A stretch of DNA of 64,000 nucleotides from Candidatus Magasanikiibacteriota bacterium (GCA_003482855.1 DMXO01000002.1:112114-176113); one strand, 5' to 3'; shown: positions 6,989 to 24,180, counted from the first letter of the stretch. Translations and numbers: made by a program. The notes: generated by a model not told the origin, from the letters alone.

Positions 6989-8509
6989 TCAAACTTTATA
7001 CTTTCTACTTTTAACTACCACAAAGTATATCATAATTCCATACAGAATCACCATTACCCACCATGGGAAACTGATATCAAGCGAAGAAAAATGTAAACCA
7101 GCAAACCATTTCACTGTTTGGACGATATATTCCATTCCCACCCAGGATATCCATGATAATACGAGAGCCAGTGGCTTGAATATGAAACTAATAAGAACAG
7201 TAAAAAAACCAAAAGCCATAATGATAGGGATCGTCCAAAGAATAAGCACATTTACAATTGGCGCAACAATAGATAGCCGTCCAAATTGAAACAAAATTAA
7301 TGGTAATGTGGCAATAATAGCGGCGAGTGTTGATAACAAAGATTCTCGCAATCCCAAAAATTCTGGAATTTTATCAAATGGCTTACGAATGGCTGGGGTA
7401 AGATACACAAGGCCAAGTGTAGAAATAAATGATAATTGGAATCCAGCGTCATATATCAAAATATAAGGATTTTGCAATGTCATGACTGTTGCTGTGAGTA
7501 CAAGAACATTTCCAATACGCGAAGTTCTGCCAACCTGTTTTGCGAGCAATGTTATAATACCCATTATCCCCGCTCGTACAACTGATGCGCTTGCTCCAGC
7601 AAAAATGACAAATAACACAATTCCACCGACAATAATCCAGAATGCTTTTTTGCGTGGAATATATAAATACACGCACATGGTAATCAAAATCGTCGCAATA
7701 ATCGTAATATTATACCCAGAAATTGCCACAATATGTGTAACACCTGTTTTTGAAAATAAATCTTGTAACTCACCAAGTCCACCACGATAGCCGTATAATA
7801 ATCCTGCCATAAAACTCGCATATGGTTCATGCCACAACTCATTTATTCTTTGTGCAATTACTTGTTTCAACGTAAATATACCACGCAATACACCATTCCC
7901 CTCACCTGATCCCATCTTTTTGATTTCAGAATTTTGACATAGCGTAAATACACCGTATCTCGCTAAATATTTATCATAGGCAAAATCATTTATTTGTTCT
8001 GGCTTCTCAAGATTGCATTTAATTTCTAATCTGTCACCGTATTCATATCGCGGATATAACGTGGATTTCAAATATATATATCCTTCTATGACATAATTTT
8101 GTACGGGTGGCTCTAGAGCCACCCCTTCACCAGCAATCATTTCTTCAATGCCCACAATATATCGCACGCCGTCCATCCTCACATCCGGCTCTACACTTAC
8201 ATACCCAACAACCGTCTTCTTTACCCCAACATAATGCACAATATTTTGCTCTGTATCTTGCGGAATTGAAATGCTATATCTCCATATTCCAAATGTTGCA
8301 AAAAATATACAGAATAATATAAAGCGGAATAATTTATTTTTCCAATAGATTATGATGAAAAAAATAGAAACGGATAGAGATACAAAGAGATAGAGTACAT
8401 CTATTTTAAAATCAAAAATTGAAACAATTCCAACGCCCAATAAAAAACAAAAGCAAAACGAAAAAAACGTCTTGCTTTTTGATTGTATAATCTGTTGTAT
8501 CCCCTCCAT
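6989..8509 (-). CDS. comEC: ComEC/Rec2 competence-domain membrane protein (lacks MBL domain)
   Basis: multi-pass membrane protein with competence-domain signature ...VTHIVAISGYNITII...; ORF track start (8527) is a TTG overlapping leuS stop; first ATG at 8509 (MEGIQQ) 2 nt after AAGGG-like SD region; either start is possible. Confidence 0.75.
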   Translation of the reverse strand: MEGIQQIIQSKSKTFFSFCFCFLLGVGIVSIFDFKIDVLYLFVSLSVSIFFIIIYWKNKLFRFILFCIFFATFGIWRYSISIPQDTEQNIVHYVGVKKTVVGYVSVEPDVRMDGVRYIVGIEEMIAGEGVALEPPVQNYVIEGYIYLKSTLYPRYEYGDRLEIKCNLEKPEQINDFAYDKYLARYGVFTLCQNSEIKKMGSGEGNGVLRGIFTLKQVIAQRINELWHEPYASFMAGLLYGYRGGLGELQDLFSKTGVTHIVAISGYNITIIATILITMCVYLYIPRKKAFWIIVGGIVLFVIFAGASASVVRAGIMGIITLLAKQVGRTSRIGNVLVLTATVMTLQNPYILIYDAGFQLSFISTLGLVYLTPAIRKPFDKIPEFLGLRESLLSTLAAIIATLPLILFQFGRLSIVAPIVNVLILWTIPIIMAFGFFTVLISFIFKPLALVLSWISWVGMEYIVQTVKWFAGLHFSSLDISFPWWVMVILYGIMIYFVVVKSRKYKV

Positions 8510-8519
8510 AGTAAGCCCT

Positions 8520-11500
8520 TTAGACAACTATAGAAATCAGCTTTCCCTTCACATAAATCACTTTTTTCGGTTCTTTCCCTTCCAGCCATTTGATCACTTT
8601 TCCACTTCTTAATGCTTCTACCTTTGCATCTTCTTCTGAAATATCTGTTGAAACAGTAATCGTATCGCGCAATTTTCCATTTATCTGTATAGCAAGGGTG
8701 ACAGTATTTTCTTTAGTTAATTCTGGATCGTATACTGGCCAAGGCTGAGTGGTCACAGTATCTTTATTCCCTAGTCTATACCACAATTCTTCAGACATAT
8801 GAGGTGCAAAAGGTGAAAGAAGTTTAATGAGTACAGTATACCCAACTTTTGAAATTTTTTCTTCTTTTAGGAGTACATTCGTGAACTGCATAAGCGCTGC
8901 AATGGCAGTATTAAATTTCAATGCTGCAACATCTTCGCCAACTTTTTTAATTGTTTGGTGCACAAGCGTTGTTAAACTATTACTCTTTGCTTCTGCCTCT
9001 ATTACTTTTTCTTGTAGATTCCAAACTTTATCAAGAAAACGCCTAATTCCTCTTACTCCATTCGTATCCCACGGCTTATCTTCCTCCAACGGCCCCATAA
9101 ACATTTCATACATCCTCATCGTATCCGCACCAAATTCATTGACCACATCTGTTGGATTTATCACATTCCCCCATCTCTTGCTCATCTTTCTATTGTCTGG
9201 TCCAAGAATCAATCCCTGGTGTCTATGAACTTTGAATGGTTCGTCTCCGACCAAGTCGGATCCGCCTTGGGCGGAAAAATCAATATAACCAGCATCGTAT
9301 AATACTTTGGTAAAAAATCGTGAATACAACAAATGCCCGTTCACATGTTCTGGCCCGCCAAGATAAAAATCAACGGGCATCCATTTTTTCAACGCTTCGG
9401 GCGATGCAAACTGCTGATCATTTTTGGGATCAAGATAGCGATAATAATACCAAGATGAACACATAAATGTATCAAGCGTATCTGGTTCGCGATGCCATCC
9501 CTTACCATATCTCTTTTCAACACCTTTTTGAAAATCTTCTGAATACGTCAATGGCGATTGACCTGTTGGTTTGAAGTCTACATCGTCTGGGAGAAGAACA
9601 GGAAGATCAGATTCAGAGACTGGCTTGAGACCAGTGACAATAGATTCCTCTAAAACAGAAGGTTCTATCTTCCCATTAAAATGTCTATCATTTGGTCTTG
9701 CTTTCACCAAACGAGCATCTAACAATTTTTGCATTTCTTCCAAATGTTCTTTTTTAATAGTTTTATAATCACAATCTGCAATCACTACAAATTCATCTGA
9801 TGATGATTTAATTTTTTCAAAATCAAATTCAAATGAATCACTGGCTTCTACGTCTGGACGTTTTTTGTCAGGAAAATCTGGTCGTAATACCGTGTCAACC
9901 AAAATCAATTTTGCAATTTTATTTTTCAATTTCTCCAAAATACGAAATGCAACTGGACCACCCAAACTATGTGCGACTATCACAGTATTTTCATCGATCG
10001 TGGTATTATTCAAAATATATTCGGCCCACTCAACTACATTTGGTTTGTCATTATGTGGCAAGTCTGGTGAAAAGACAGCATGTCCAAGCTGTTCTAACTC
10101 TTTTTTTAACCAAGGACGGAAATCATTATTACCCGTGGCTAAATAACCATGTATAAACACATAATTATATTTTCTATTTTTTCTTTCTTCATTAAACAAC
10201 ATCGGAATCGGTGCACCCCAAAACCGCTGACGAGAAACCGACCAGTCGCGGAGTTTGTATTGTACTTTTCGTTTGCCTATTCCCTTTTCTTCAAGCCATT
10301 GAATCATTTTTTCTTTGGCTTCTTGAGTTGAAAGGCCATCTAAAAAATTAGAATTTATTGCAGTGCCTTCACCTGAAAACAATCTCCCTGTTTTTTCCAA
10401 TGCCCTTCTTATAAATATTTCCTCTGAACCATTGTAAGTTTTCAATTTTTCAATAGCTTCATCTGGAGCCAACCAATTGGCCTCGTAATCTTCATAGCTC
10501 TCAAATGCAGTATCAGTTTTTTTATCACTCAACAATTTAAGCTTCAAGACCCTTTGTAATTTGTTCCATTGAATATTTTTGTCAACCGCATAAAAATTTG
10601 ATTCAATCATTCCTAGATCATCTACAACTTCATAATCCGTATACCCTGCTTCTTCGCGGAGTTCACGCTGTACTGTGTCTTCCACTGTCTCCCCCCGCTC
10701 CATCCCCCCAGATGGTAAACGATAAATATTAAACTTTTTATTAAACAAAACCAAAACCTTATCATCTTTAAAGACAACGGCCGCTGCTGAATCACGGTGT
10801 TTAGCGCTTTTATCAAAACCACCACAATGTTGAACAACTACATCTTTTATTGGTAAATTATATTTCTTCGCAAACTCAAAATCTCTTTCATCATGCGCTG
10901 GTACTGCCATAATTGCGCCAGTTCCATATGTTGCAAGTACATAATCAGCAACAAAAATAGGAATCTCTTCATTTTTCACGGGATTAATTGCTTTTATTCC
11001 TTTTAATTCTACACCTGTTTTTTCTTTCTGCACTTGACGATCAAGTTCAGTCTTTTTTGATGTTGCTTCAATATATTTTTCAACTTCATCCCAATTCTGG
11101 ACTTCGGACTTTAGACTACGGACTACAGCATGTTCAGGTGCTAGAACCATATATGTAGCTCCAAACAAAGTATCAGGTCTTGTAGTAAAAACCGTTATCT
11201 TCTTTTCTTGATTGTGGTCTGAAGTCTGAAGTCTGAAGTCTACTTCCGCTCCTTCCGACTTCCCAATCCAATCCTTCTGCCTTTTCTTCGTCTCTTCTGG
11301 CCAATCAAGTTTATCAATATCATTCAATAATCGTTCGGCATAATCAGTAATTTTGATATACCACTGTTCCATTTCTTTTTGAATAATCAAAGTATCACAT
11401 CGCTCGCAATGTCCTTCTTTTACTTGATCATTTGCAAGAACTGTTTTGCATGAATCACACCAATTCACTGATTGTTTTTTTCTATAGGCTAAACCGCGTT

Positions 11501-11936
11501 TATAAAATAATAAAAAAAACCACTGTGTCCATTTGTAGTAATCTGGATTATGCGATCCCACTTCCCTATCCCAATCTACAGAAATGCCCAAAGATTTTAT
11601 TTGACTACGAAAATTGTTCACTGCTGTCTCAGTGCTTTTTGCTGGATGTACATTTGTTTTAATTGCGTAATTCTCTGCAGGTAAACCAAAACTATCCCAG
11701 CCAATCACTTGTAAAACTTTCTTTCCAGTCATGCGCTGATATCGCGCGTAAATATCGCACGCTGTATACACTTCCGCATGGCCGACATGAAGACCGCTTC
11801 CGGATGGATATGGGAGCTGTGGAAGAATGTAAAACTTGTTTTCAGAATTAATATCTTCTGGAGTCTTAAACAACTTTTGTTCTTCCCAAATTTTTTGCCA
11901 TTTTGATTCTATTTCTTGAGGATTATACTTCTCCAT
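8520..11936 (-). CDS. leuS: leucyl-tRNA synthetase with two inserted domains (Nudix hydrolase-like ~nt 10377-10814; alpha/beta serine hydrolase-like ~nt 9633-10175)
   Basis: HVGHAEVY (HIGH), TTRPDT...VPAHDERD (CP1 editing), GEGTAINS...RDWSVSRQRFWGAPIP, WHREPDTLDTFMCSSWYY, KMSKR (KMSKS); plus GGMERGETVEDTVQRELREEAGY (Nudix box) and FIHGY...VIVAHSLGG (GxSxG) not found in canonical LeuS; 1138 aa. Confidence 0.9.
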   Translation of the reverse strand: MEKYNPQEIESKWQKIWEEQKLFKTPEDINSENKFYILPQLPYPSGSGLHVGHAEVYTACDIYARYQRMTGKKVLQVIGWDSFGLPAENYAIKTNVHPAKSTETAVNNFRSQIKSLGISVDWDREVGSHNPDYYKWTQWFFLLFYKRGLAYRKKQSVNWCDSCKTVLANDQVKEGHCERCDTLIIQKEMEQWYIKITDYAERLLNDIDKLDWPEETKKRQKDWIGKSEGAEVDFRLQTSDHNQEKKITVFTTRPDTLFGATYMVLAPEHAVVRSLKSEVQNWDEVEKYIEATSKKTELDRQVQKEKTGVELKGIKAINPVKNEEIPIFVADYVLATYGTGAIMAVPAHDERDFEFAKKYNLPIKDVVVQHCGGFDKSAKHRDSAAAVVFKDDKVLVLFNKKFNIYRLPSGGMERGETVEDTVQRELREEAGYTDYEVVDDLGMIESNFYAVDKNIQWNKLQRVLKLKLLSDKKTDTAFESYEDYEANWLAPDEAIEKLKTYNGSEEIFIRRALEKTGRLFSGEGTAINSNFLDGLSTQEAKEKMIQWLEEKGIGKRKVQYKLRDWSVSRQRFWGAPIPMLFNEERKNRKYNYVFIHGYLATGNNDFRPWLKKELEQLGHAVFSPDLPHNDKPNVVEWAEYILNNTTIDENTVIVAHSLGGPVAFRILEKLKNKIAKLILVDTVLRPDFPDKKRPDVEASDSFEFDFEKIKSSSDEFVVIADCDYKTIKKEHLEEMQKLLDARLVKARPNDRHFNGKIEPSVLEESIVTGLKPVSESDLPVLLPDDVDFKPTGQSPLTYSEDFQKGVEKRYGKGWHREPDTLDTFMCSSWYYYRYLDPKNDQQFASPEALKKWMPVDFYLGGPEHVNGHLLYSRFFTKVLYDAGYIDFSAQGGSDLVGDEPFKVHRHQGLILGPDNRKMSKRWGNVINPTDVVNEFGADTMRMYEMFMGPLEEDKPWDTNGVRGIRRFLDKVWNLQEKVIEAEAKSNSLTTLVHQTIKKVGEDVAALKFNTAIAALMQFTNVLLKEEKISKVGYTVLIKLLSPFAPHMSEELWYRLGNKDTVTTQPWPVYDPELTKENTVTLAIQINGKLRDTITVSTDISEEDAKVEALRSGKVIKWLEGKEPKKVIYVKGKLISIVV

Positions 11937-11940
11937 AAAA

Positions 11941-12363
11941 CTACTTTATTGAAAATTCTTTAGTAATAGGATCTACATTATCTGCTTTAATTTGCAAAAC
12001 AACTTGATATGCGCCGACAGGCCAACCATTATCTGGTATAGATAGACTGCCGTACACTTCTTGCTGATCTCCTTCTTTTTTCGTAAAATCTACAGAATCA
12101 ATCTCGTATGGTTCTTCTGTGCCTTGTTCTCCTAAATAATACCAAGAATAGTTTACGACAGTGCCTTCTACTGCATTTTGCAATAACGCGGTGAGAAATA
12201 ATTCTGGAGTATCAGATGAAAATTCAACTGTATCTTCTGCACATTGATAATCTACTAAAGCTGAACACATTTTTACATTTTGTAAATTTGCTGTTGTTAC
12301 TTCGCAACCTGCGCCAAGTAACGCTAAAATTCCTAATGATAATAAACCGATTCTATACTTCAT
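11941..12363 (-). CDS. putative lipoprotein
   Basis: MKYRIGLLSLGILALLGAGC: signal peptide with lipobox (LGAGC); 140 aa. Confidence 0.5.
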   Translation of the reverse strand: MKYRIGLLSLGILALLGAGCEVTTANLQNVKMCSALVDYQCAEDTVEFSSDTPELFLTALLQNAVEGTVVNYSWYYLGEQGTEEPYEIDSVDFTKKEGDQQEVYGSLSIPDNGWPVGAYQVVLQIKADNVDPITKEFSIK

Positions 12364-13522: not shown

Positions 13523-13713
13523 TATAGCAGTGCCATCTTTCCTCCAGTCCTTCTGTGATCTTTCTGTCTGTTCTTTGGTCAAATGAATAGTTATATGTTG
13601 TACATTTCCATCACCTCTACCAGACTCAAATCCTGGAAAACCTCTATGTTCTTTCTTCGCCTCATCAGAGAGAGTAAGTGTGTCACGTCTTTCTTCAACA
13701 AAGGGTCTATCAA
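13513..13713 (-). repeat. direct repeat copy 1 (~200 bp, ~90% identical to 24376-24571): 3' fragment of a paralog of the small ORF at 24382..24666
   Basis: alignment by eye of 13513-13713 with 24376-24571; repeat edge (…caaagggtctatca) coincides with stop codon of giant gene A (13710-13712); minus-strand reading gives …VDRPFVEERRDTLTLSDEAKKEHRGFPGFESGRGDGNVQHITIHLTKEQTERSQKDWRKDGTAI* in the +1 frame relative to gene A, with no start codon. Confidence 0.7.
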
Positions 13714-16700
13714 CTGTCGTGGTCTTTCTTTTTCAAAACTTCATTTCGTGCAATCAAGCCACCCAAACCACCAGTTTTTTTACTTGAAAAATCCACCTCT
13801 TCACTCTTCTTTTCCTCATAGCCTAGTTTATCATATGTAACATAATACACACTTGGTCCGACAAGAGCCGCATATCTCCCTTTTTTATCGGTAACGCTCG
13901 TCGCAATAAGCTTGTTGTATGCCGCGTCAAATATACGCACCACGACTTTACCAAGTGGCTTTTCAGTTAATGCCTCTAAGACTTTACCAAAGTTACCACC
14001 AAGCTTCTTGCTGGCAAAACGACGAAGCATATCATAGACAAAGATATGGAACACAAGCATAACAGCAATATACCACTTTGGTGATATGATGAAAGACACT
14101 GCAGTTAAAATGACGCCAGACAACGCGAGAGTCTTTTGGAATGTTTGACGTGTGTATTCTTTGATAACTTTTGCTGTAGAATCCACTTTCGTTTCAGGAT
14201 CAAGCGGGATATTATAATTCATCTCAAATTGTTCTTCAGTCACTTCAAATTCTTTGCCATGATATAAATTGATATAGTTGCTGTCTTCATCAAATTTCTG
14301 TAGATATTCACTAAAACCAACAAAGCCGGGCTTTTGAATTTCGATACGATATTTGCCTTCGTCAGCAATGATAAAAAATCGTCCTTGGCTATCAGTAACT
14401 TGCGTCTGTACTACTTGTAAATTTGAGGTATTGACCAAACGCACAGTTGCTAAGTCTATTGGCTGTTTAGTATATGCATTGTATACCACACCCCACTGTT
14501 TTCTCTTGCGTCTACGCAAAAGGACGAGTGGCTGAGTAAAAATATAGCGTAAGTATGCAAGAATATTCGGTAGCTGAAACCCGACTGCAACATTTGCGAC
14601 AGCTATGATAGCGACAGACGGCGCGACAACTTTTTCATTAACTGATTCTACAACAGGATTATTTACAACTCTTTTAATAACTTCAAATGTTTTGCGTGTA
14701 AAATCTTTTATGGAATCAGGAATAATATCAGCTATAGTTTCTGTTATTTTTTTGAAAATATGACCAATGCTGTCCGTTATATATCCGCTTATATCAGTTA
14801 TAACATCGACAAAAGAATTAAAACCAAACTGACTGTCTGAAACATTACTACTGTCTTCTCCCTCTAATCTATCTGTAACATCAGGTAAACTATCATTATC
14901 TTTTTCATCTGCTTCTTCTGATTCGTCCCTACACAAAGACGAACAGCCATCACCTGAAACTACATTGCCATCATCGCATGACTCACCTTTTTCTACAATC
15001 ATATTGCCGCACGCTATCTCAGGTATGATCTTTACAAGCTTACATCTCAAATTACAATAATATCCTTCAGGAGCACTGCCATCGCATGCTTCACTGTCTT
15101 CTTTAATACCATTTCCGCACACTCTTACTATTTCTTCACACACATCTCCAATGCCGTCACTGTCCTTATCCAGTTGGTTAAAATTTTTATGATAGGGACA
15201 ATTATCACAAACATTGCCCACCTTATCTCCATCGATATCCAATTGATCAGTATTAGGAATATCAACACAATTGTCAGCCCCATCAAGCACTTTATCCTTG
15301 TCCTTGTCTTTACAAGTATTGGTACTATCATGGGGACACGTGTCACACAAATTACCAACGCCATCTTTGTCGCTATCCAACTGGCCGGCATTTGATACGC
15401 TTGGACAATTATCAATGCCATCTTGAATGCCATCGCCATCTGTGTCACCAGAACAAATATACAACGCAGGATTTTCAAGGCATTGATCAACGGTAGTGAC
15501 TGGCTTTATACCTATCCCTACCGTATTGCCATACAAGAGAGTGGAATCATTTGGATCAATTACTGCCGCAGCGCTCACAGAAGTCATTGGCGCTTTGACG
15601 CCAAAACGAAGATATATATATTCTGGAAAATCATATAACTTCGCTTTTATACTGCGGTACATGAGAATTGATGTGATGCCTGTCTTTGCAGATGCACCGC
15701 TCCAGGTAGCAGGATAAACGAAAAACTTCTCACCTACATTATTGTCGCTGAATGGTTTGTCACTTATATACACCTCATACTCTGTCGCCTTTTTACACAA
15801 TTGAAATGTAAAATATATATCACCTCTCGAACTATTTTTTACCAACTTCAAAAGACCAGTGCCATCAAGAGGAACTTCTTCGTCAGAGTAAGGTTCCAAT
15901 TTTAAGATATCAGGCGGTGTATCAAGGCATGGATGTTTGGGAGAAATACCTATATATCCTATGCTCGCGCTTCTGCTAAAAATAACATTCCGCGCACCCG
16001 GGGCATAAAATTTTACACAGACAGTCTTGTTGCCTGGGCCATCGGAAAAAGTAAATGGCACACGCTTTGAGGAGCCATTGGGCAAAGGAATTTGATCCAA
16101 AGTCTGTTCTGTATCACATCCTTGCCCGCCTTGTACTTCAAATGGCGTATAATAATGCGTTGCTGAATTGCTTGAAATAGTAAGAAGCACGTCTCTTTTA
16201 TTTGTCGTACTTTCTCCGCCATTTATAACCACAGTGCCATTGGCATCCTGTGGACATGTATTGGTCTCATTGCAATTAGGAGGCGGAGGCGGCGGGGGCG
16301 TAGAAGGGTTCCCGATATTCACTGTCACACCTGATGCATTTACAAAAGATGTTTCTACATCAGCTGTATTTTTTGCTTTTACACGAAATGTATAGGTGCC
16401 ATTGGACAAACCACTAAATATGTACGAAGTACTCGTGACCCAGCCAGAATTTAGAGAGGCATTTGAACTGTCTTCAACATAATATGCTGCGGCTGTGCCA
16501 GACCATGAAACAGTAACATCTTGATTTGCAACTGAAGCACTCAGTGACGACAGGCTTGCCAATGTATAATTTGAAATAGCGTCAGTCGAAGATGTCATTT
16601 CCCCATCTACATTACGCGCTGTCACACGAAAAGAATAACTCTGGTTTGGGGTAAGCCCTGCAAAAGCATAAAAAGCGTCTGCTATCCACCCAGAGTTCAG

Positions 16701-19475
16701 ACCATTGGTTATGTTTTCAGCCAAAAATTCTGCGCCGCTATCACCGGTCCACGATAGTGTGATTTGTATAGCGCTGTCTACTGTCGTAGTTGCCGAAGTT
16801 GGCACATTGGTAAGTGTATATACAGCAGAGGCACTTACATAGATGGTTTCATCGTCACCGCCATTTTTTGCTTTTACTTTGAATTGGTACTGCGTATTTG
16901 CGCTCAGGCCAGTAAACTGATACGACGTTGCCCCTATCCAATCTGAGTTACGACTCGCATCATTGTTGTCCTCTACCCAGTATGATGGTGCATCGCCAGA
17001 CCACGAAACAGTAATAGTACTCGTGCTATTGGCAATGGCCGCAACAGAATACGGAAGTCCGACAGTAGTATAGGCAGAAGCAGATGGTCCATATGCTGTT
17101 ACAGCGCCGTCTCCATTACGCGCCTTTACCTCAATGCTATGCAAGGTATTTGTCACAAAACCGACGGTCGTGGTGCCAGATGCAGCACCAAGTTCTTCGT
17201 ATGTAAACCATACCTCTGCAGCCCCCCACGTAGCATCACTTTGCAAATACAAATCATCTTGTGAATCATGAACTAAAAATTCAGTCCCTGCAGGATTGCT
17301 ATTTGGATTTATGGTGATATCTAGTGTTGTCTCTGTAGGATTGGAAATACTTGGTACTCCTGGTGTGTTTGCAAGAGTAAAAAAATCCAAACTGCTCGTT
17401 GCCGAAGATATTCCATCAGCATTGCGTATATTTGCAGAGGTACTGTACTGCACATTAGGCGACAACCCACTTATAGACCAGCTACTCACTCCTGATTGCC
17501 ACCCGGAACTCGACACGACCGACCCGCCAAATAATGAGATATCAAAATAATAACCTGAAAGGCCTGTGGAATGATTATCGAATGTATCGACTAACAATGA
17601 AACAGATGAAGCACCAAGCGAGCTCGTGGCAAACCCAGATACGGCAGGCGCCAAAGTATAAAAACTTAATTCAGATGTAGAAGAGACGCTACGCCCAAAA
17701 ATATCATACGCCCATAAACTCATATAGTACAATGAATTCCCTATAAGTGAAGAAACTAATACAGTCGTATTTCCTTCCCAGGTACTTGATGCAAAATATG
17801 AAAATGTAGAAGATGTGAGTGATGAACTAAATTCAGTGACCGGAGTAGATGTACTATAATAAATAATATACTCCAAAAAATTTGTATCCGTGGTTGTTGT
17901 CAAATTTACAATAGTAGACGTGGCAAATATAGTATTGGTAGTCAGTGGACCAGGGAGCGGTGATGGCGCCAATGTATCAATGGCAAAAGCAGTGGATGAC
18001 ACTGTCGTTCCATTTACTGTACCATCATTTGGCGTCAAACGAAAATAGACTGTGCTATCATCAATATTTGGCACATCCGCGGCAATGTTCCACTCAAATG
18101 ACAGATCAACAGAACCATCAAGGTTTGTGTCTACGCTTGAAATACTACCTGTCGAAGTGGAGACAGATCCTTCGCTTAAAATAGCACTACCAATAGTTGA
18201 TGAAACCCATGTACTATTATCAAGCGAGTACTCTGCGATAATACTTGTTACATTATTATCTGCATCAGCAATAGTTGTTGTCACGGTAACTACGTTTGTT
18301 AAGGTTTGAGCTGGATAAATGTTGGTAAGTGTGGGCGCAGTGTTTGGATTGGTGTCTACATAACTTAAATAATTAACACTACCCAAATCAGAAGAATTGT
18401 GTGATATTGCTATAACATCACCATATTTTTGTAATTCATGCAAAGAACCCCAATACACGCCACCATCGACTTTCTCTGTGCTCCAAGTACCATTTTTTAT
18501 ACTAAATTTTAAATCATCCGGTACTTCATCAAACCACGCTATCATTGGGTTGCTACCAGCCGAATCCACCCACAAAGACACTTGACGAGCAGATACGGTA
18601 TTAGCAACTTCAGCGCATCCCAAAGAACCGCCGATACTAGCGGTACAGTATTGTAAATCTTGGTCTGAATCAACATATGCAAAATGAATATTATCCGACC
18701 CGTCAACATCCAAACCAATATCACCAACAATAGTGCTGGCTGGCAGATAAGTAACTTTGGCTGTATCATAACAATTCCAATTCGTGTCAGTACAAGTACC
18801 AGCGCCAGCGCCGTTTTTAACCGCGTACCACATACGCGCAGTGGAATACTCATTATAAGCAATAACCGGCACGCCACTGCTGTTAAAGGCCAAACGCAAA
18901 CTCAAACCCAGCTCGTTGGCGATATCATGCACCAAAGTAAAAGTCCAATTAACCGCGGAACCACAATCATTGGCCGTATCGCAAAATCCATAATAAATAT
19001 TTTCATTAGTGGCATAGGTCACACCGACCGTACTGCCAAAAACATCAGCAGAGACGGTTCTCGTAAAACCAGCCCCATTGTTAATACTGACCGCTGACCA
19101 ATTAACCCCATTATCCGATGAACTGGCGACATAAAGGTCGCCGGTCGCATATACACTGTAAAATGTTAATAATTTATTTGTTCCAGCGTAAACTATGTCT
19201 ATATTTTGCATCTTGTCTCCCGTACCAGCATCACTCGTAACCACATGCTCCGCACTTGGTACGCCATTATTGACTGACACATGATAAATTTTATCTGTGG
19301 CTTCGTTTGAATAATAAATTGTATGGATTAATGTCTCTGACTCCATAGCCACGGCTGTTTGTTCCAATCCGACTTCATCAGTGGATAAAGCTACAGTTTG
19401 CCACGAATAAGCATTGCCATAACGAGGCAATAAAAAAGCTGATAACAAAAACGTGATATCTAAAAAAAATAACAT
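13710..19475 (-). CDS. giant secreted/membrane-anchored surface protein (BNR/Asp-box beta-propeller-like N-terminal region, multiple fibronectin type III-like repeats, poly-Pro linker, thrombospondin type 3-like Ca-binding repeats, Cys-rich repeats, two carboxypeptidase-regulatory-like domains and C-terminal TM helices)
   Basis: 1953-aa ORF in track (TTG at 19571); likely start ATG at 19475 (MLFFLDITFLLSAFLL signal-like, GGAAAG SD); SSDNGVNW Asp-box; repeated ...SWSG...Y.F.V.A.N FnIII-like units; DTDGDGIQDGIDNCP / DIDGDKVGNVCDNCP TSP3-like; PPPPPPP; CGNGIKEDSEACDG; VYNAYTKQPIDLATVRLV...TDSQGRF. Confidence 0.8.
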   Translation of the reverse strand: MLFFLDITFLLSAFLLPRYGNAYSWQTVALSTDEVGLEQTAVAMESETLIHTIYYSNEATDKIYHVSVNNGVPSAEHVVTSDAGTGDKMQNIDIVYAGTNKLLTFYSVYATGDLYVASSSDNGVNWSAVSINNGAGFTRTVSADVFGSTVGVTYATNENIYYGFCDTANDCGSAVNWTFTLVHDIANELGLSLRLAFNSSGVPVIAYNEYSTARMWYAVKNGAGAGTCTDTNWNCYDTAKVTYLPASTIVGDIGLDVDGSDNIHFAYVDSDQDLQYCTASIGGSLGCAEVANTVSARQVSLWVDSAGSNPMIAWFDEVPDDLKFSIKNGTWSTEKVDGGVYWGSLHELQKYGDVIAISHNSSDLGSVNYLSYVDTNPNTAPTLTNIYPAQTLTNVVTVTTTIADADNNVTSIIAEYSLDNSTWVSSTIGSAILSEGSVSTSTGSISSVDTNLDGSVDLSFEWNIAADVPNIDDSTVYFRLTPNDGTVNGTTVSSTAFAIDTLAPSPLPGPLTTNTIFATSTIVNLTTTTDTNFLEYIIYYSTSTPVTEFSSSLTSSTFSYFASSTWEGNTTVLVSSLIGNSLYYMSLWAYDIFGRSVSSTSELSFYTLAPAVSGFATSSLGASSVSLLVDTFDNHSTGLSGYYFDISLFGGSVVSSSGWQSGVSSWSISGLSPNVQYSTSANIRNADGISSATSSLDFFTLANTPGVPSISNPTETTLDITINPNSNPAGTEFLVHDSQDDLYLQSDATWGAAEVWFTYEELGAASGTTTVGFVTNTLHSIEVKARNGDGAVTAYGPSASAYTTVGLPYSVAAIANSTSTITVSWSGDAPSYWVEDNNDASRNSDWIGATSYQFTGLSANTQYQFKVKAKNGGDDETIYVSASAVYTLTNVPTSATTTVDSAIQITLSWTGDSGAEFLAENITNGLNSGWIADAFYAFAGLTPNQSYSFRVTARNVDGEMTSSTDAISNYTLASLSSLSASVANQDVTVSWSGTAAAYYVEDSSNASLNSGWVTSTSYIFSGLSNGTYTFRVKAKNTADVETSFVNASGVTVNIGNPSTPPPPPPPNCNETNTCPQDANGTVVINGGESTTNKRDVLLTISSNSATHYYTPFEVQGGQGCDTEQTLDQIPLPNGSSKRVPFTFSDGPGNKTVCVKFYAPGARNVIFSRSASIGYIGISPKHPCLDTPPDILKLEPYSDEEVPLDGTGLLKLVKNSSRGDIYFTFQLCKKATEYEVYISDKPFSDNNVGEKFFVYPATWSGASAKTGITSILMYRSIKAKLYDFPEYIYLRFGVKAPMTSVSAAAVIDPNDSTLLYGNTVGIGIKPVTTVDQCLENPALYICSGDTDGDGIQDGIDNCPSVSNAGQLDSDKDGVGNLCDTCPHDSTNTCKDKDKDKVLDGADNCVDIPNTDQLDIDGDKVGNVCDNCPYHKNFNQLDKDSDGIGDVCEEIVRVCGNGIKEDSEACDGSAPEGYYCNLRCKLVKIIPEIACGNMIVEKGESCDDGNVVSGDGCSSLCRDESEEADEKDNDSLPDVTDRLEGEDSSNVSDSQFGFNSFVDVITDISGYITDSIGHIFKKITETIADIIPDSIKDFTRKTFEVIKRVVNNPVVESVNEKVVAPSVAIIAVANVAVGFQLPNILAYLRYIFTQPLVLLRRRKRKQWGVVYNAYTKQPIDLATVRLVNTSNLQVVQTQVTDSQGRFFIIADEGKYRIEIQKPGFVGFSEYLQKFDEDSNYINLYHGKEFEVTEEQFEMNYNIPLDPETKVDSTAKVIKEYTRQTFQKTLALSGVILTAVSFIISPKWYIAVMLVFHIFVYDMLRRFASKKLGGNFGKVLEALTEKPLGKVVVRIFDAAYNKLIATSVTDKKGRYAALVGPSVYYVTYDKLGYEEKKSEEVDFSSKKTGGLGGLIARNEVLKKKDHDS

Positions 19476-19680
19476 TATTACCACTTTCCATTTTTTATTC
19501 AATTGTCCTAATAAAAATGACATATTATACAAAACTATCCGCCAACAAAAGGAAGATTCCTGATATAACAAATAACCTGTAATACAAGTTCATTTGGTTC
19601 ATGCTAAATTGTGCTTTAGAGATAGTCTTAGAGACAAGAGAATTATATCATTCTTTATGCGCCTCAACAACATAATACTG

Positions 19681-19740: not shown

Positions 19741-22700
19741 TTACTTCAATATCTCTCCCTCCTCATATATCTCAGTATCTGGAACAGTAACAATGCGGTC
19801 CCAACGGAAGTCGAGCGAGGTGAAGATGAGCTCGTCTTTGATGAGACGCTTCACTTGCGAGGTTTGATCTTGTGGATTTGGTTCAATTCTATAGATGTGA
19901 GGACTATTTGCGTACTTGATCAAGGTATAATCAGGATGGTGAGTGGTATAGTTTATCTCTTGTGCTGTAGTATATTTATCCAAAAGTTGTGTTGAAATAT
20001 CTTCTATCCAATTCCACGCATAATGAAGAGCTTCAAACACGGCTGGTGAAGTAATCCAATATTTTTGTGTACCCAGAAGCAAATAAATCTTTGGGTCAGA
20101 GACTATTTTGACAATAGCGCCATATTGAGGATTGTACAACGGTCCCTTAGGCATGAAACCTAAAGAGTCATTTGGTACTAAATTAAGCTTGGTTTGTGTG
20201 GTATTGTTGACACTGCTCCATGAGGTAAAGTAGGTTTTGTATGTTGTTTCATCTTTGAACGCGCGTCTGGTGCAGTCTTCGGTAATATAGTAGATTGCAG
20301 AGCTATCCGGTATTTTGTAGGCTTTGCCAATGTCTAACGGACATACGCCTGTCTTTTGTTCAGTTGCTTGGCTCACAAACTCAATAGTATCTGAAACAAT
20401 CTTTGTACCGCCTGCTGTTGTGCGAAATTTTACATAGACTGTTTTTACTCCATTACCAGAAGTTAAAATCCATGATTTTGTTTTGCTATATGGTTCAAAT
20501 GATATATTGGTAAAATCATTTGAGTTAGAAATAGCCATCTGCGTTGCGTCTGGTGAATTTAGATACAATGTAACATTTTGAGAGTTGGTCTTTGACAAAG
20601 CTTTATTGATACTCATTTCTAAATCAACAATAGCAGATAAAGTAAGTTTTACTTGCTTACTGTCTGCTGACGCGAGCCTCACAAACAAATCATCTGTTCC
20701 ATCTTTATTTGTGTCCACCAATTGTTCCTCCCCTGCTTTTAATGTGATGGTAATGGGGTCAGATTGGACTGTGACGGTAACATCACCTACTGCGTCTGGT
20801 GAGCTTGCTGTAATAGTATGTGTAGCATTGCCAACAGAGACGGACGTGGGAGTATGAGGAGATATCGTAATGCTTAACGTAGTCGGTGCACTAGAGACCG
20901 GTGTTGAAGGTGCAGAAGGAACAGCAGAACTACCACCACCTGATGTATCGTTGTCTGTAATGGTTACTGTGACAGAGGCAATAGTAGCGCCATCATAGTC
21001 TGTGTCATCGCTCACTGCAGTATGGGTAATTGTAGAGCTATGTGAGCCATCGACTGTGCTATTGTCTGTAGCAGTTACCGTAACGGTTTGGGTAGTATCC
21101 CAATTGGCAGAGGTAAAGGTAATCGTTGATGGTGACACAGATGCCCCTGTAGTAACTGATGGTGTTATAGTTACATTGGTTGATGGTTTTGTCGTAAGAA
21201 CAACCGTATATGTATCAGTCGTACCACCTTCGGTGACAGCTTGGGTGGATTCAGAAACAGTAACAGCTGGAACAGTAGACAAAATAGCCGACGCGGAACT
21301 GGTCGCGGCCGTGCCCGCGTCCGTACCGTCATCAGGTGTTACTTCAAATTTCAAATATTTGCCCGCGTGGCTAGAACTAACAATTGTAGTGGTAGTAGTG
21401 GCGCCGGCAATAACACTATACACACCACCGGAAGTATCAGCTACCAACCAACGGTAGGTTGAACCGCTTTCCAGGTCATCATCGGTGTCAGTAAAAGTAT
21501 AAGTACCGGTCAACGTCTCACCCACGCGCAAAGTACCGGAAATTACTGCATCAGACGCGGTTGGGGCGGTATTACTTGGTACTGCGGCCAGTACCAAAGT
21601 GGCAGTTTTATTTGGTGAATCAAGCGTAAAATTACTGGTTGATGAGGCACTATATGTGCCGTCTCCGGCAAAACTAACAGTGAACGGATTGCGATTTCCA
21701 TTATCAGTATCAATGCTTGAACTGGTCATGATCCATGACAATAAATAATCTGTGTATGGCGTGTATCCGCCCGCGGTAGAAGTGACAGTCTCACTTTGCG
21801 ATCCGCCAGAGCCGTCAGCAAAAGTCATGCCAATATCTGCAAGGCCACTACTCGTGGAAGTCGCAAGACCTCTCGCTTTGAAATACACATTCACATTGCC
21901 GGTGCTCGCGATTGAGCTTGACGCGGATGTAAATGTGACATTTTTCAAATTATTATCTGTTGTCGCGTCAGAATAAATATCATACGCATCGCTAGAAGAA
22001 AATACTGTGCTTGACACATTATTACTTGCAGACGTGCCGTTAAACCAAATACCATAATACCCATCAGTCGTTGTAACATTTTGAATCGTATTTGAATTGG
22101 AGTTGATGAGTTTGATGTTGGAGTAAACTACAGAAGAACCACCAGAAAGAGTAGGTGGGTTCGTATAACCACCTGCAACACCTGTTATGGGTACACTTGC
22201 ATTTGCCAAAGCATCAGCATTGTATGAATATACACCATTACTTAAAGTAAAAACATCTGATGCCCAAGAATCAACGGCTATTGAACAAATTGACTCCCAT
22301 GCTCCTTCAGTAGAAGCTACACTGTCCGGAACCCACATCATCATTTTTACTCCACCGCTATCAAATAATGCGACGTTTATGTTATCAACTCCAAACTCGT
22401 CATATGAAGTAACATCAGTAGCCGAAGTAAAACTAGTCAGATGCACATCTTGTTGACAACCTGCCCCATCATAGTGCAACAAAACAAAACCACCATAAGC
22501 TGCTGCATCGTATGCCGTTTCACCAATAGCTAATGGTGAGTAAGACATAATATATGGAGATACACCTGTAGAACTCGCGTTCTGCACTACCAAATCTTGA
22601 ATCGTGCTATTATCCGCTGAAGACAGTGTAATGCCATTTTGGCCAGAGCCGGCGCTAATAATCGTATTCACGCCCGAGCCGTCTATGGTCACACTGGAAG

Positions 22701-24180
22701 TAGCAATGGTAAATGGACTGTATGTTCCATTTGACAATGACACTGTGTCTCCAGGTTTTAAACTATTAGTCAGGGCAGTGGACATATCTTCCGCGTAAAT
22801 ATTCGCATAGTCAACCACGCCATCATCGGTAACAACTATTGGAGTGTCTGTTAAACGCGTGCACGCGAAAGCGCCAACGTCATAGTCGCAATATAAGCTA
22901 TGCGGAGCAAGGTGCTGGTCATTTGCTGTGCTTGTATCTCCGGTCTTGAACCATGGTCCCGCGGTCGGCGTCTGATGCCCACCTCCGTTAACAAAAGCAA
23001 TAGTCCCACTCGTAGTTGTATTCAAATCAAGATTATAATAAGCATTATTGGCTATATAAGCAGTAAAATTACCATCAGCCCTTTCAAAATATTCTCCTCC
23101 ACCCATTGATGATCCTGATGAGGAATAAAATAAATTGTTGGTGGAAGTAACAAAAACATCATTATTCGCGCCTGCGGTACGCAAACTTAAGCAAGCAGTA
23201 TAATTTCCATCTTCATCTGATAAAACATTACATGTATTATATTGGTAAGTCAGGCTTATATCAGTAAAAGGCCACGATACACTATTACTATTTCCATAAA
23301 AACCGCGCGTACCAGCTGGAATAGTAAAATAATTACCAGAAACAAGCACATTAGTATGTGTCCCTTGAAAAGCACTGATCATTACACCACCATCTCCACT
23401 GCCAAGCGATGTGTTGAGCGTATTGGAAGTAATTGACATATTAGTTGATGTACCAAACTGTATGGCATCACCACCAAAGTCTGTCCAATATAGAGTATTG
23501 GAAGTAATAAGAGCATTATTAGTTGTTGGCAAGTCAATAATACCTCTGTTTGACATATCTACATACCGACTGTATATTTCATTATTTTGTATAGTCAAAT
23601 TATCCATGGTCATGGTTCCACTGTAACCGATTTGCTTCATGCCCGTATTATTGCTAATAGTCCAGCCTGTCACGCTGTTTAGCAAAAAAATAGTGGTCGT
23701 GGCCGTACTCGTCACTGATGTATTTCCAGTGATGAGCACATTATCCGAACCACCAAAAGCAGTGGTTATCATTACATTATTAAGCTGGCAATTTTGCAAT
23801 GTGGAACTATTGGATAATTTAATAGCGCTTGTAAAATTATCATAATTACCTGCAAAAGTAGTTGAAGCAATGGTTGCTTCATTGTGACAATCTATTGTTA
23901 TACTTGAGGTTGGAACAGTAATCGGATAATTCTCGCCAGTTGGATCATAATCTGAATAAACCCGAATGGTATCACCTTCCACTGATGCAGCTAATGCCGC
24001 GGCTATGGTCTGGTATGTGTGACTGGCTCCTACTTCAAGAGTACCCACAGCCTCAACATTTTGTGTATCATACAACTGCGGAATCAAAACACTCAAAATC
24101 GCCAAACTAAAAACAATAAGACCAAGCCAAACATTTTTTATAGCTATATAAAAAATTTTGCCTTTGATAGTGAGAGACAT
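19741..24180 (-). CDS. giant secreted protein with right-handed parallel beta-helix (pectate-lyase-like PbH1) repeats
   Basis: 1479 aa; N-terminal signal/TM (VWLGLIVFSLAILSVLIP); many ...ITSNTL.../NNxI.. beta-helix-type repeats; Ser/Thr/Pro-rich linker; C-terminal ~330 aa domain of unknown type; no LPXTG or C-terminal TM. Confidence 0.75.
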   Translation of the reverse strand: MSLTIKGKIFYIAIKNVWLGLIVFSLAILSVLIPQLYDTQNVEAVGTLEVGASHTYQTIAAALAASVEGDTIRVYSDYDPTGENYPITVPTSSITIDCHNEATIASTTFAGNYDNFTSAIKLSNSSTLQNCQLNNVMITTAFGGSDNVLITGNTSVTSTATTTIFLLNSVTGWTISNNTGMKQIGYSGTMTMDNLTIQNNEIYSRYVDMSNRGIIDLPTTNNALITSNTLYWTDFGGDAIQFGTSTNMSITSNTLNTSLGSGDGGVMISAFQGTHTNVLVSGNYFTIPAGTRGFYGNSNSVSWPFTDISLTYQYNTCNVLSDEDGNYTACLSLRTAGANNDVFVTSTNNLFYSSSGSSMGGGEYFERADGNFTAYIANNAYYNLDLNTTTSGTIAFVNGGGHQTPTAGPWFKTGDTSTANDQHLAPHSLYCDYDVGAFACTRLTDTPIVVTDDGVVDYANIYAEDMSTALTNSLKPGDTVSLSNGTYSPFTIATSSVTIDGSGVNTIISAGSGQNGITLSSADNSTIQDLVVQNASSTGVSPYIMSYSPLAIGETAYDAAAYGGFVLLHYDGAGCQQDVHLTSFTSATDVTSYDEFGVDNINVALFDSGGVKMMMWVPDSVASTEGAWESICSIAVDSWASDVFTLSNGVYSYNADALANASVPITGVAGGYTNPPTLSGGSSVVYSNIKLINSNSNTIQNVTTTDGYYGIWFNGTSASNNVSSTVFSSSDAYDIYSDATTDNNLKNVTFTSASSSIASTGNVNVYFKARGLATSTSSGLADIGMTFADGSGGSQSETVTSTAGGYTPYTDYLLSWIMTSSSIDTDNGNRNPFTVSFAGDGTYSASSTSNFTLDSPNKTATLVLAAVPSNTAPTASDAVISGTLRVGETLTGTYTFTDTDDDLESGSTYRWLVADTSGGVYSVIAGATTTTTIVSSSHAGKYLKFEVTPDDGTDAGTAATSSASAILSTVPAVTVSESTQAVTEGGTTDTYTVVLTTKPSTNVTITPSVTTGASVSPSTITFTSANWDTTQTVTVTATDNSTVDGSHSSTITHTAVSDDTDYDGATIASVTVTITDNDTSGGGSSAVPSAPSTPVSSAPTTLSITISPHTPTSVSVGNATHTITASSPDAVGDVTVTVQSDPITITLKAGEEQLVDTNKDGTDDLFVRLASADSKQVKLTLSAIVDLEMSINKALSKTNSQNVTLYLNSPDATQMAISNSNDFTNISFEPYSKTKSWILTSGNGVKTVYVKFRTTAGGTKIVSDTIEFVSQATEQKTGVCPLDIGKAYKIPDSSAIYYITEDCTRRAFKDETTYKTYFTSWSSVNNTTQTKLNLVPNDSLGFMPKGPLYNPQYGAIVKIVSDPKIYLLLGTQKYWITSPAVFEALHYAWNWIEDISTQLLDKYTTAQEINYTTHHPDYTLIKYANSPHIYRIEPNPQDQTSQVKRLIKDELIFTSLDFRWDRIVTVPDTEIYEEGEILK

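Follow-up and report, generated by a model that had tools for sequence, protein, structure and literature searches.

Leucyl-tRNA synthetases (LeuRS) of the bacterial type (LeuRS-B), as known from Thermus thermophilus (1H3N/2BYT) and Escherichia coli (4AQ7), carry the HIGH signature, the ZN-1 knuckle, the CP1 editing domain, the KMSKS signature, and the anticodon-binding and C-terminal domains in a usual order. Aminoacyl-tRNA synthetases (aaRS) whose polypeptide also contains an unrelated catalytic domain have been described in the form of an IleRS–N-acetyltransferase (NF040702) and of MprF–LysRS (PMC5388404). Essential genes are further known to host inteins, which are in-frame insertions at conserved sites with a patchy distribution and spread via conserved flanks. 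Mosaic alleles of essential genes, arising through transformation and recombination, are likewise classical, for example in the pbp genes of streptococci. Here, we analyzed a stretch of 64,000 nucleotides (hereafter the window) from a Candidatus Magasanikiibacteriota bacterium (GCA_003482855.1 DMXO01000002.1:112114-176113), in which the leuS gene encodes a LeuRS (hereafter the query) with two enzyme cassettes nested in its loops, namely a Nudix hydrolase (site 1) and an alpha/beta serine hydrolase of the YdeN/RBBP9 family (site 2). The two cassettes are dispensable and independently assorting, not fixed parts of the enzyme, and comparison of related lineages indicates that they are very probably exchanged by recombination.

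All components belong to known families (LeuRS-B, the Nudix superfamily, and PF06821). The query preserves the LeuRS-B domains in their usual order, whereas it differs in bearing extra enzymes of ~150 aa and 183 aa in the loops equivalent to T. thermophilus (Tth) residues 364–373 and 438–442 and in having the leucine-specific domain (Tth 577–634) reduced to a short disordered loop. The Nudix cassette shares with the dinucleoside-polyphosphate hydrolases (3I7U; RppH/NudH/YgdP) a canonical Nudix box and, with 3I7U, full-length similarity, but it is nested, it misses the NCBIfam equivalog cut-offs, and cassettes of this kind are mutually only ~31% identical. The site-2 cassette exhibits the minimal alpha/beta-hydrolase fold and the Ser–Asp–His triad of the PF06821 hydrolases YdeN (1UXO) and RBBP9 (2QS9/7OEX), although such cassettes are embedded in LeuRS at three alternative sites and those of type A have the acid shifted three residues upstream. 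As in the IleRS and LysRS fusions, an aaRS polypeptide is joined to an unrelated catalytic domain; unlike them, LeuRS here has two cargo sites, alternative cargo families, variable presence, and direct allelic replacement. The likeness to inteins lies in the in-frame insertion at conserved sites of an essential gene, the patchy distribution, and the spread via conserved flanks, yet the cassettes have no Hint domain, homing endonuclease, or splice residues, and the insert is kept in the mature protein as an enzyme under purifying selection. Mosaic pbp alleles offer another parallel, with imported tracts and sharp identity breakpoints in an essential gene (comEC, moreover, adjoins leuS), but leuS swaps a whole nested domain (same fold, ~25–30% identical), or a domain against none, and not point differences. 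The combination of alternative enzyme cargo at several fixed loops, polymorphism between near-identical strains, and widespread occurrence in Patescibacteria appears undescribed: no description of the nested-cassette architecture or of the cassette polymorphism was found in a literature search whose full-text part reached few subscription papers, so that this absence is not proof, and aaRS-wide surveys (including PMC5388404) make no mention of either.

The leuS open reading frame (ORF) runs from an ATG start to a TAA stop with zero internal stops and encodes 1138 aa. It scored 934.1 bits against TIGR00396 (leuS_bact; equivalog cut-off 548.4) in a match of three stretches split by the inserts, and its alignment with 1H3N, the LeuRS of T. 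thermophilus (E = 1e-213), comprised four query blocks (1–368, 517–581, 768–886, and 917–1138), two of the gaps between blocks coinciding with the Nudix and hydrolase inserts. The earlier note on this DNA had described a complete LeuRS with all core landmarks in order, and every motif that it quoted was located, including the CP1 editing motifs (the T-rich TTRPDT at residues 251–256 and VPAHDERD with the editing Asp at 345–352), GEGTAINS (522–529), RDWSVSRQRFWGAPIP (563–578), and WHREPDTLDTFMCSSWYY (814–831); CP1 is placed after ZN-1, which is the bacterial arrangement. Across 100 aligned homologues, the catalytic and editing residues of HIGH, KMSKS, ZN-1, and CP1 were invariant or nearly so in any cassette state, with D349, R351, and D352 of the editing site strictly invariant and T251–T256 conserved at 90% or above. 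An AlphaFold2 model of the full chain, with 100 homologues as input, reached a mean predicted local distance difference test score (pLDDT) of 89.9 and a predicted template-modelling score of 0.82, with the LeuRS body intact. By its motifs, the window gene is thus predicted to be an intact bacterial LeuRS, complete in its editing and synthetic sites. A query-specific stretch of ten residues, SAQGGSDLVG (residues 888–897; window 9246–9275), which is part of the short loop in place of the leucine-specific domain, was the sole region with a pLDDT below 50.

Cassette boundaries at both sites were set by comparison with insert-free orthologues, and Pfam profiles matched both inserts above their gathering thresholds (GA), which bears out the two folds proposed in the earlier note for residues ~370–520 (Nudix) and ~588–770 (a small YdeN/RBBP9-type serine hydrolase). 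In the site-1 insert, PF00293 (NUDIX) covered residues 380–504 of the full protein with 50.5 bits (GA 21.1; E = 2.7e-13) and gave 53.4 bits on the isolated cassette. The closest solved relative was the Ap4A hydrolase of Aquifex aeolicus (3I7U), matched over its full length (E = 9e-10), with the runner-up at 7e-5. In the AlphaFold2 model, this insert forms a globular domain with a mean pLDDT of mostly 89–97 per 10-residue block (78 in one block). Among 48 Nudix cassettes, G410, R424, E425, E428, E429, G431, and W488 were invariant, whereas E416 and the strict Nudix box (GX5EX7REUXEEXGU) were each present in 45 of the 48; the REx2EE core was conserved in all 48. The best NCBIfam matches of diverse Nudix cassettes were to RppH-type models and weak, at 20–35 bits against cut-offs of 116–259. 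An exact-word search of a 5.8-billion-protein index with the Nudix cassette alone returned no match, these cassettes being too diverged for word seeding.

The second insert enters the catalytic body of the synthetase after WGAPIP, at the turn of a beta-hairpin (PMLxNE-GE-LKPV) equivalent to Tth 438–442. PF06821 (Ser_hydrolase) matched residues 593–754 with 40.6 bits (GA 22), or 45.5 bits on the isolated cassette, and PF00561 also exceeded its threshold in this region (41.3 vs. 25.8 bits). A profile of 35 hydrolase inserts aligned over full lengths with Bacillus subtilis YdeN (1UXO, E = 5e-28) and human RBBP9 (E = 3e-18), and the AlphaFold2 model shows a globular domain at a pLDDT of 94–98. The characteristic motifs are FIHGY (594–598), AHSLGG (655–660), and DRHFNG (750–755). 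The nucleophile Ser and the catalytic His were kept in all 66 hydrolase cassettes compared, and the oxyanion His596 of the HG motif in 65 of them; all 66 possess a catalytic acid, placed at two alternative positions, either as D/E at the equivalent of residue 721 (type A), three residues upstream of the canonical position, or in the canonical S-x-x-D-P (types B and C). The residues that anchor the substrate alpha-amine in RBBP9 (Glu108, Ser76, and Tyr99) map to a poorly aligned loop of the cassettes, where the Glu108-equivalent column is mixed (E in 17, K in 14, and others); near this loop, D690 was kept in 54 of 65 and R693 in 47 of 65. The GC content at third codon positions was 0.22 in the hydrolase cassette against 0.28–0.32 in the LeuRS core. 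The exact-word search of the same index with this cassette alone retrieved one free-standing hydrolase. That the Nudix and hydrolase segments are real nested domains is virtually certain.

Comparison of the 120 closest proteins, mostly annotated as Candidatus Magasanikbacteria, revealed four length classes, corresponding to no insert (~800 aa), Nudix only (~945 aa), hydrolase only (~990 aa), and both cassettes (~1130–1200 aa). Site 2 is binary, holding either ten residues or a hydrolase of 188–221 residues. Site 1 is filled by Nudix in 47 sequences, by a HAD phosphatase in P0016, and by an S-adenosylmethionine-dependent methyltransferase in P0093 and P0104; elsewhere it holds a loop of 2–57 residues or other contents. 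In one homologue (P0051), a third position close to residue 239 harbors the hydrolase. On a tree built from 769 core columns, the four cassette states were thoroughly interleaved, and the presence of one cassette was independent of the other (26/21/31/33, Fisher p = 0.57). The inserts are therefore neither lineage-wide nor carried "permanently", as the earlier note had it: at one and the same locus, some sister lineages have them and others do not, and they are replaced in otherwise identical strains. An insert-free leuS (P0082, GCA_018657365.1) lies in the gene order GDH–IMPase–leuS–comEC–methyltransferase–Lactamase_B found also in the window and in its closest relative (P0002), and the IMPase-to-Lactamase_B part of this order is common to P0082 and to the insert-bearing window, P0002, P0012, and P0036. 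Since insert-free and insert-bearing genes share one neighborhood, they are alleles of one orthologous locus and not paralogues, and by this synteny the window leuS is identified as the orthologous housekeeping copy. Ancient paralogy was rejected on the grounds of the interleaved cassette states and the shared synteny. The site-1 inserts without a Pfam match were of at least four kinds, of 79–160 aa (P0022/P0080, P0026/P0031, P0038, and P0039); the site-1 domains of L018 and L019 were compared only with the Nudix hidden Markov model (HMM) built here.

Evidence for exchange came from related lineages and not from the window's own. Among sequences with both cassettes, the core averaged 70% identity, the Nudix domain 31%, and the hydrolase 36%, and cassette identity hardly correlated with core identity (r = 0.22 for Nudix and 0.07 for the hydrolase). 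Among close pairs, cassette identity was bimodal, at either ~80% or ~25–35%. In some pairs the cassettes track the core, as in P0008/P0009 (core 83%, Nudix 82%, hydrolase 85%) and P0025/P0041 (90%, 78%, and 81%, respectively). In others a single cassette departs from it: P0040 and P0041 share 98% of the core and 100% of the Nudix domain with a replaced hydrolase of 30% identity, P0012/P0036 show 96% in the core and 26% in the hydrolase, and P0009/P0010 show 87% in the core, 36% in the Nudix, and 83% in the hydrolase. Conversely, the hydrolases of P0017 and P0068 are 94% identical although their cores share only 81%. The query itself follows this trend, its Nudix domain being closest to that of P0106 (45%), whose core is only 58% identical, with the Nudix domains of its nearest core relatives (83–88%) at ~31–32%.

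At the DNA level, the contigs L001 and L002 are 98–100% identical per 60-nt window over more than 4 kb, comprising the IMPase gene, leuS with its Nudix cassette, and downstream sequence, with the exception of ~700 bp at the hydrolase cassette, where identity falls to 18–55%. The left breakpoint lies directly after the WGAPLPM codons and the right one in the LPVxLPNDVDFKP codons, after which a few synonymous differences follow in close succession. Similarly, in the contig pair L010/L011, flanks of 100% identity enclose a 1.6-kb mosaic tract in which the site-1 loop and the type of hydrolase both differ and 540 bp of LeuRS core are 83–93% identical. Sharp breakpoints in conserved LeuRS codons between near-identical flanks therefore point to homologous recombination through the LeuRS flanks. 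Downstream, directly after leuS, L002 carries an extra 840 bp relative to L001 (6390–7230; ~99–100% identical otherwise) with a 247-aa ORF without Pfam match, and two small indels at ~5970–6150 of L002 shorten its leuS call to 1001 aa, which may reflect pseudogenization or sequencing error.

In the vertically inherited pair P0025/P0041, the ratio of nonsynonymous to synonymous substitution rates (dN/dS, Nei–Gojobori) was 0.17 for the Nudix and 0.16 for the hydrolase cassette against 0.04–0.09 for the LeuRS core, at comparable dS (0.7 in the cassettes, 0.3–0.9 in the core). Judging by these ratios, the cassettes are clearly under purifying selection, two to four times weaker than that on LeuRS. 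Because the catalytic residues are invariant and dN/dS is low, the cassettes are read as working enzymes, and we hold with good confidence that they are active and under selection. Fast drift, considered as a cause of the low cassette identity, was rejected in view of the bimodal identities, the dS equal to that of the core in the vertical pair, and the sharp breakpoints.

The architecture, which the earlier note had remarked on as unusual, is no one-off. Nudix domains at site 1 were found also in Saccharimonadales (including a complete chromosome of 778 kb, OY970356.1), Paceibacterota, Parcubacteria, and other Patescibacteria, where matches of the genome and metagenome scans were typed with HMMs built from the alignments of this analysis. 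When 1.84 billion cluster representatives were searched exhaustively with the hydrolase profile in HMMER, 169 matches at E ≤ 1e-30 were obtained, of which the best 149 comprised ~75 free-standing proteins of 175–200 aa and 74 long proteins; ~55 of the latter were LeuRS, and there were one ValRS and one AlaRS. Nested copies in LeuRS thus outnumbered those in all other hosts combined by ~10 to 1 among these 149, with a profile built from LeuRS-nested cassettes. The ~55 LeuRS were 35–75% identical to the query core, their hydrolase occupying site 1, site 2, or a site 0 close to residue 240; one cluster was named Candidatus Taylorbacteria. Among further combinations, P0145, P0154, and P0188 pair a site-0 hydrolase with a site-1 Nudix domain, P0129 has its Nudix at a fourth CP1 position and its hydrolase at site 2, P0197 and P0170 carry a Ham1/ITPase domain at site 0 plus a hydrolase at site 1 or 2, and in one scanned LeuRS sites 1 and 2 were both filled by hydrolases. 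By their domain matches, the same kinds of enzyme, a nucleotide pyrophosphatase (Nudix or Ham1) and the hydrolase, recur in Patescibacteria LeuRS at no fewer than four positions. Much more rarely than in LeuRS, the hydrolase is nested in SecA, TsaD, EngA/Der, AlaRS, and ValRS (P0132, P0175, P0189, P0227, and P0230). Two hydrolase copies each were seen in L107 and P0123. Several nested LeuRS (P0002, P0008, P0055, P0071, P0272, and P0273) are publicly named "alpha/beta fold hydrolase" or "hypothetical protein"; the misannotation is systematic and stems from the nested domains.

The coordinates of the leuS features and of the adjoining comEC gene are given in the table. The order leuS–comEC–methyltransferase–Lactamase_B is kept in L003, L008, L010, and L011. 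The position of comEC beside leuS is compatible with uptake by transformation, a circumstantial link that may be coincidence. A gene with a PD-(D/E)xK nuclease fold (PF13366, 127–139 aa) occurs patchily between leuS and comEC, at 9437–9820 in L003, 6305–6724 in L006, and 4600–4992 in L012, and is absent from the window, L008, L010, and L011; a free-standing endonuclease so close to the swapped region could favor gene conversion. In the window, a 140-aa ORF with a lipoprotein-like N-terminus (11941–12363, minus strand) separates the IMPase gene from leuS; it is absent from L003 and L008, where the IMPase gene adjoins leuS with no called gene between. Unrelated to the leuS finding, two giant ORFs lie on the minus strand of the window: one of 1953 aa (13710–19571), by eye with Ser/Thr-rich repeats and Asp-rich toward its C-terminal part, and one of 1479 aa (19741–24180) with a NosD-like Pfam match.

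Table. Positions of leuS, its domains, motifs, and cassettes, and of comEC in the window.
Feature	Residues	Window position	Strand	Basis
leuS, complete bacterial-type leucyl-tRNA synthetase with two nested enzyme cassettes		8520..11936	(-)	TIGR00396, 1H3N, AlphaFold2
HIGH signature HVGH, class I synthetic site	50-53	11778..11789	(-)	H50, G52, H53 invariant in 100 homologues
ZN-1 type Cys4 knuckle	C160, C163, C177, C180	11397..11459	(-)	Cysteines nearly invariant in 100 homologues
CP1 editing domain, N-terminal part	221-372	10821..11276	(-)	PF13603, E 8e-60
Nudix hydrolase domain in CP1 surface loop (= Tth 364-373)	~370-519	10380..10829	(-)	PF00293; insert-free orthologues
Nudix box GX5EX7REUXEEXGU, GGMERGETVEDTVQRELREEAGY	410-432; catalytic E425, E428, E429	10641..10709	(-)	
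CP1 C-terminal part and return to catalytic core, between cassettes	517-560	10257..10388	(-)	Aligned with Tth 374-438
WGAPIPML codons, left homology arm of site 2	573-580	10197..10220	(-)	W573, G574, P576, P578 invariant
YdeN/RBBP9-family (PF06821) alpha/beta serine hydrolase, type A	587-769	9630..10178	(-)	PF06821, 1UXO profile, boundaries
Nucleophile (AHSLGG)	Ser657	9966..9968	(-)	Kept in 66/66 hydrolase cassettes
Probable catalytic acid	Asp721	9774..9776	(-)	Acid at either of two positions, 66/66
Catalytic His (RHF)	His752	9681..9683	(-)	Kept in 66/66 hydrolase cassettes
LPVLLPDDVDFKP codons, right homology arm of site 2	778-790	9567..9605	(-)	L001/L002 right breakpoint
KMSKS signature KMSKR	917-921	9174..9188	(-)	K917, M918, S919, K920 invariant in 100 homologues
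Anticodon-binding domain	990-1100	8637..8969	(-)	PF08264, E 8e-21
comEC, DNA-uptake channel, overlaps the leuS stop by 8 nt		6989..8527	(-)	PF03772, E 4e-50, and DUF4131

The reading that we lean toward takes LeuRS as a chassis for two autonomous accessory enzymes in its surface loops, whose cassettes would be gained, lost, and replaced by homologous recombination in Patescibacteria populations, with conserved LeuRS codons as homology arms and the imported DNA probably taken up by natural competence. The earlier note had offered extra editing, NpnN or adenylate turnover, and moonlighting as possible roles; on the present reading, the nested enzymes would perform a tethered house-cleaning of aminoacylation by-products, in which the nucleotide pyrophosphatase (Nudix, elsewhere Ham1/ITPase) may break down dinucleoside polyphosphates, or aberrant nucleotides, produced or bound by synthetases, and the RBBP9-like hydrolase may cleave aminoacyl esters or amides, e.g., stray or mis-made aminoacyl compounds. 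Such a role is suggested because the same two enzyme classes recur in distant LeuRS at different positions, and the Ham1 fold, unrelated to Nudix, fills the pyrophosphatase slot elsewhere, which looks like convergence on function. Synthetases produce Ap4N and related dinucleotides, which RppH/NudH-type Nudix enzymes degrade (PMC7705103), and among solved structures an Ap4A hydrolase comes closest to the query Nudix. RBBP9, for its part, forms an acyl-enzyme with single Leu, Ile, Phe, Tyr, and Trp residues, requires a free alpha-amine, and cleaves amide, ester, and thioester bonds (PMC8866121); according to Shenoy 2020, as cited in PMC7730578, it also activates the L-valyl ester valacyclovir. 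This last activity is aminoacyl-ester chemistry; the single amino acids that RBBP9 handles are hydrophobic, and the nested copies lie overwhelmingly in synthetases for hydrophobic amino acids. A functional coupling of the cassettes to LeuRS chemistry, with Ap4N and aminoacyl esters as the by-products cleaned up, is on this comparative ground a tentative proposal, not far from an even call. Several results weigh against it: sister lineages do without the cassettes, the two assort independently, site 1 also takes HAD, methyltransferase, and at least four small domains without Pfam match, the hydrolase is nested in SecA, TsaD, and EngA too, the Nudix cassettes reach no cut-off of a substrate-defined NCBIfam equivalog, the conservation of the RBBP9 Glu108 anchor is not clear in its poorly aligned loop, and the host census is biased toward LeuRS by the profile used. 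As to the exchange itself, a near-identical strain of the window lineage with another cassette was not found in whole-protein scans of genomes and metagenomes, which returned mostly ordinary 800-aa LeuRS of unrelated bacteria, with back-translated patterns matching conserved core motifs. Much of this would fit a LeuRS that is purely a carrier, a conserved, essential, and constitutively expressed scaffold with cargo of an ordinary housekeeping or accessory kind (an esterase, an aminopeptidase, or an enzyme of nucleotide sanitation) that has no part in leucylation, nesting providing promoter-free expression, protection from deletion, and conserved flanks for spread in an intein-like niche without splicing. 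The range of hosts, which includes AlaRS and ValRS, the heterogeneous and dispensable cargo, the insertion at surface loops of already variable length (2–57 residues at site 1), the ~75 free-standing hydrolases among the best 149 representatives, and the recombination directly seen through conserved flanks all agree with a carrier. The predominance of LeuRS among nested copies (in a biased search), the apparently convergent return of a nucleotide pyrophosphatase at different sites in distant LeuRS, and a family chemistry (Ap4A; aminoacyl-X hydrolysis) that fits aaRS by-products speak against it, and we consider this explanation, the chief rival, possible, if somewhat doubtful.

The turnover of alleles could alternatively mirror an arms race in which the cassettes are cis-acting detoxifiers that shield LeuRS or tRNA-Leu, for instance from antibiotics mimicking aminoacyl-adenylates (cf. 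MccF and MccE on processed microcin C) or from toxins that modify tRNA 3' ends or aminoacyl-tRNA. The allelic diversity is indeed extreme, with four hydrolase types and 47 Nudix sequences that fall into 17 clusters at 40% identity, near-identical strains often differ by a replacement, the cargo (hydrolase, phosphatase, methyltransferase, and pyrophosphatase) belongs to classes typical of small-molecule-modifying resistance enzymes, NCBIfam already holds an IleRS with a GNAT domain (NF040702), and many aaRS, LeuRS included, are targets of natural toxins (PMC5388404). Defense and immunity are nonetheless unlikely: a PADLOC-DB scan of the cassettes gave only a weak, partial match to the generic Nudix PDC-S07 (E = 6e-7) while the hydrolase drew none, leuS is not linked to a toxin or antibiotic locus, vertical cassettes evolve under plain purifying selection at ~2–4 times the core dN/dS with no sign of positive selection, and the diversity is explicable if the cassettes are ancient across Patescibacteria and have been shuffled by recombination. 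The presence of an RBBP9-type ester/amide hydrolase in an editing synthetase might also suggest a replacement or back-up for a degenerate CP1, an idea that is very improbable given that many sister lineages are without the hydrolase and that T251–T256, D349, R351, and D352 are invariant or nearly so in 100 homologues; the hydrolase as substitute for a dead editing site was accordingly rejected, the editing residues being kept regardless of cassette. As for an artefact or a known element (mis-assembly, a frameshift gene fusion, or inteins), only the unusual length could hint at it, and its probability is close to nil. LeuRS is in frame on both sides of each insert, AlphaFold2 folds the whole chain confidently, and mis-assembly is excluded because the architecture recurs in a protein of other data that is 99% identical to the query (P0001) and in more than 60 homologues of independent assembly. 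The Pfam scan detected no Hint, intein, or LAGLIDADG/HNH domain, no homing endonuclease was found by Pfam within the cassettes or beside the window leuS, and the junctions (...NEERK|NRKY... and ...IVTG|LKPV...) show neither Cys/Ser-1 nor HN-Cys/Ser/Thr; the intein reading, already dismissed in the earlier note, was thus rejected for want of both domains and splicing residues.

These observations make an essential, textbook-conserved translation enzyme a polymorphic locus, at which otherwise identical strains may possess, lack, or exchange entire catalytic domains, and they disclose an unrecognized route by which the ultra-small, streamlined genomes of the candidate phyla radiation could exchange accessory functions. 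The fusion with LeuRS also offers a natural "Rosetta stone" to the poorly understood YdeN/RBBP9 hydrolases and Nudix/Ham1 pyrophosphatases, yielding hypotheses on the clearance of Ap4N and aminoacyl esters at their source. As LeuRS serves as a phylogenetic marker, alignments and trees are liable to distortion by its nested cassettes and mosaic tracts. More broadly, we put forward as a rather tentative hypothesis that Patescibacteria keep part of their accessory genome inside core genes, as non-splicing enzyme cassettes in the loops of essential proteins, those nested in aaRS acting in cis on by-products. If true, the cassettes (Nudix, Ham1, HAD, methyltransferase, RBBP9-like hydrolase, and several other folds) would represent an intein-like niche filled by useful enzymes, with LeuRS above all but also ValRS, AlaRS, SecA, TsaD, and EngA as hosts, and they would circulate between strains and lineages via conserved host codons that mediate homologous recombination.

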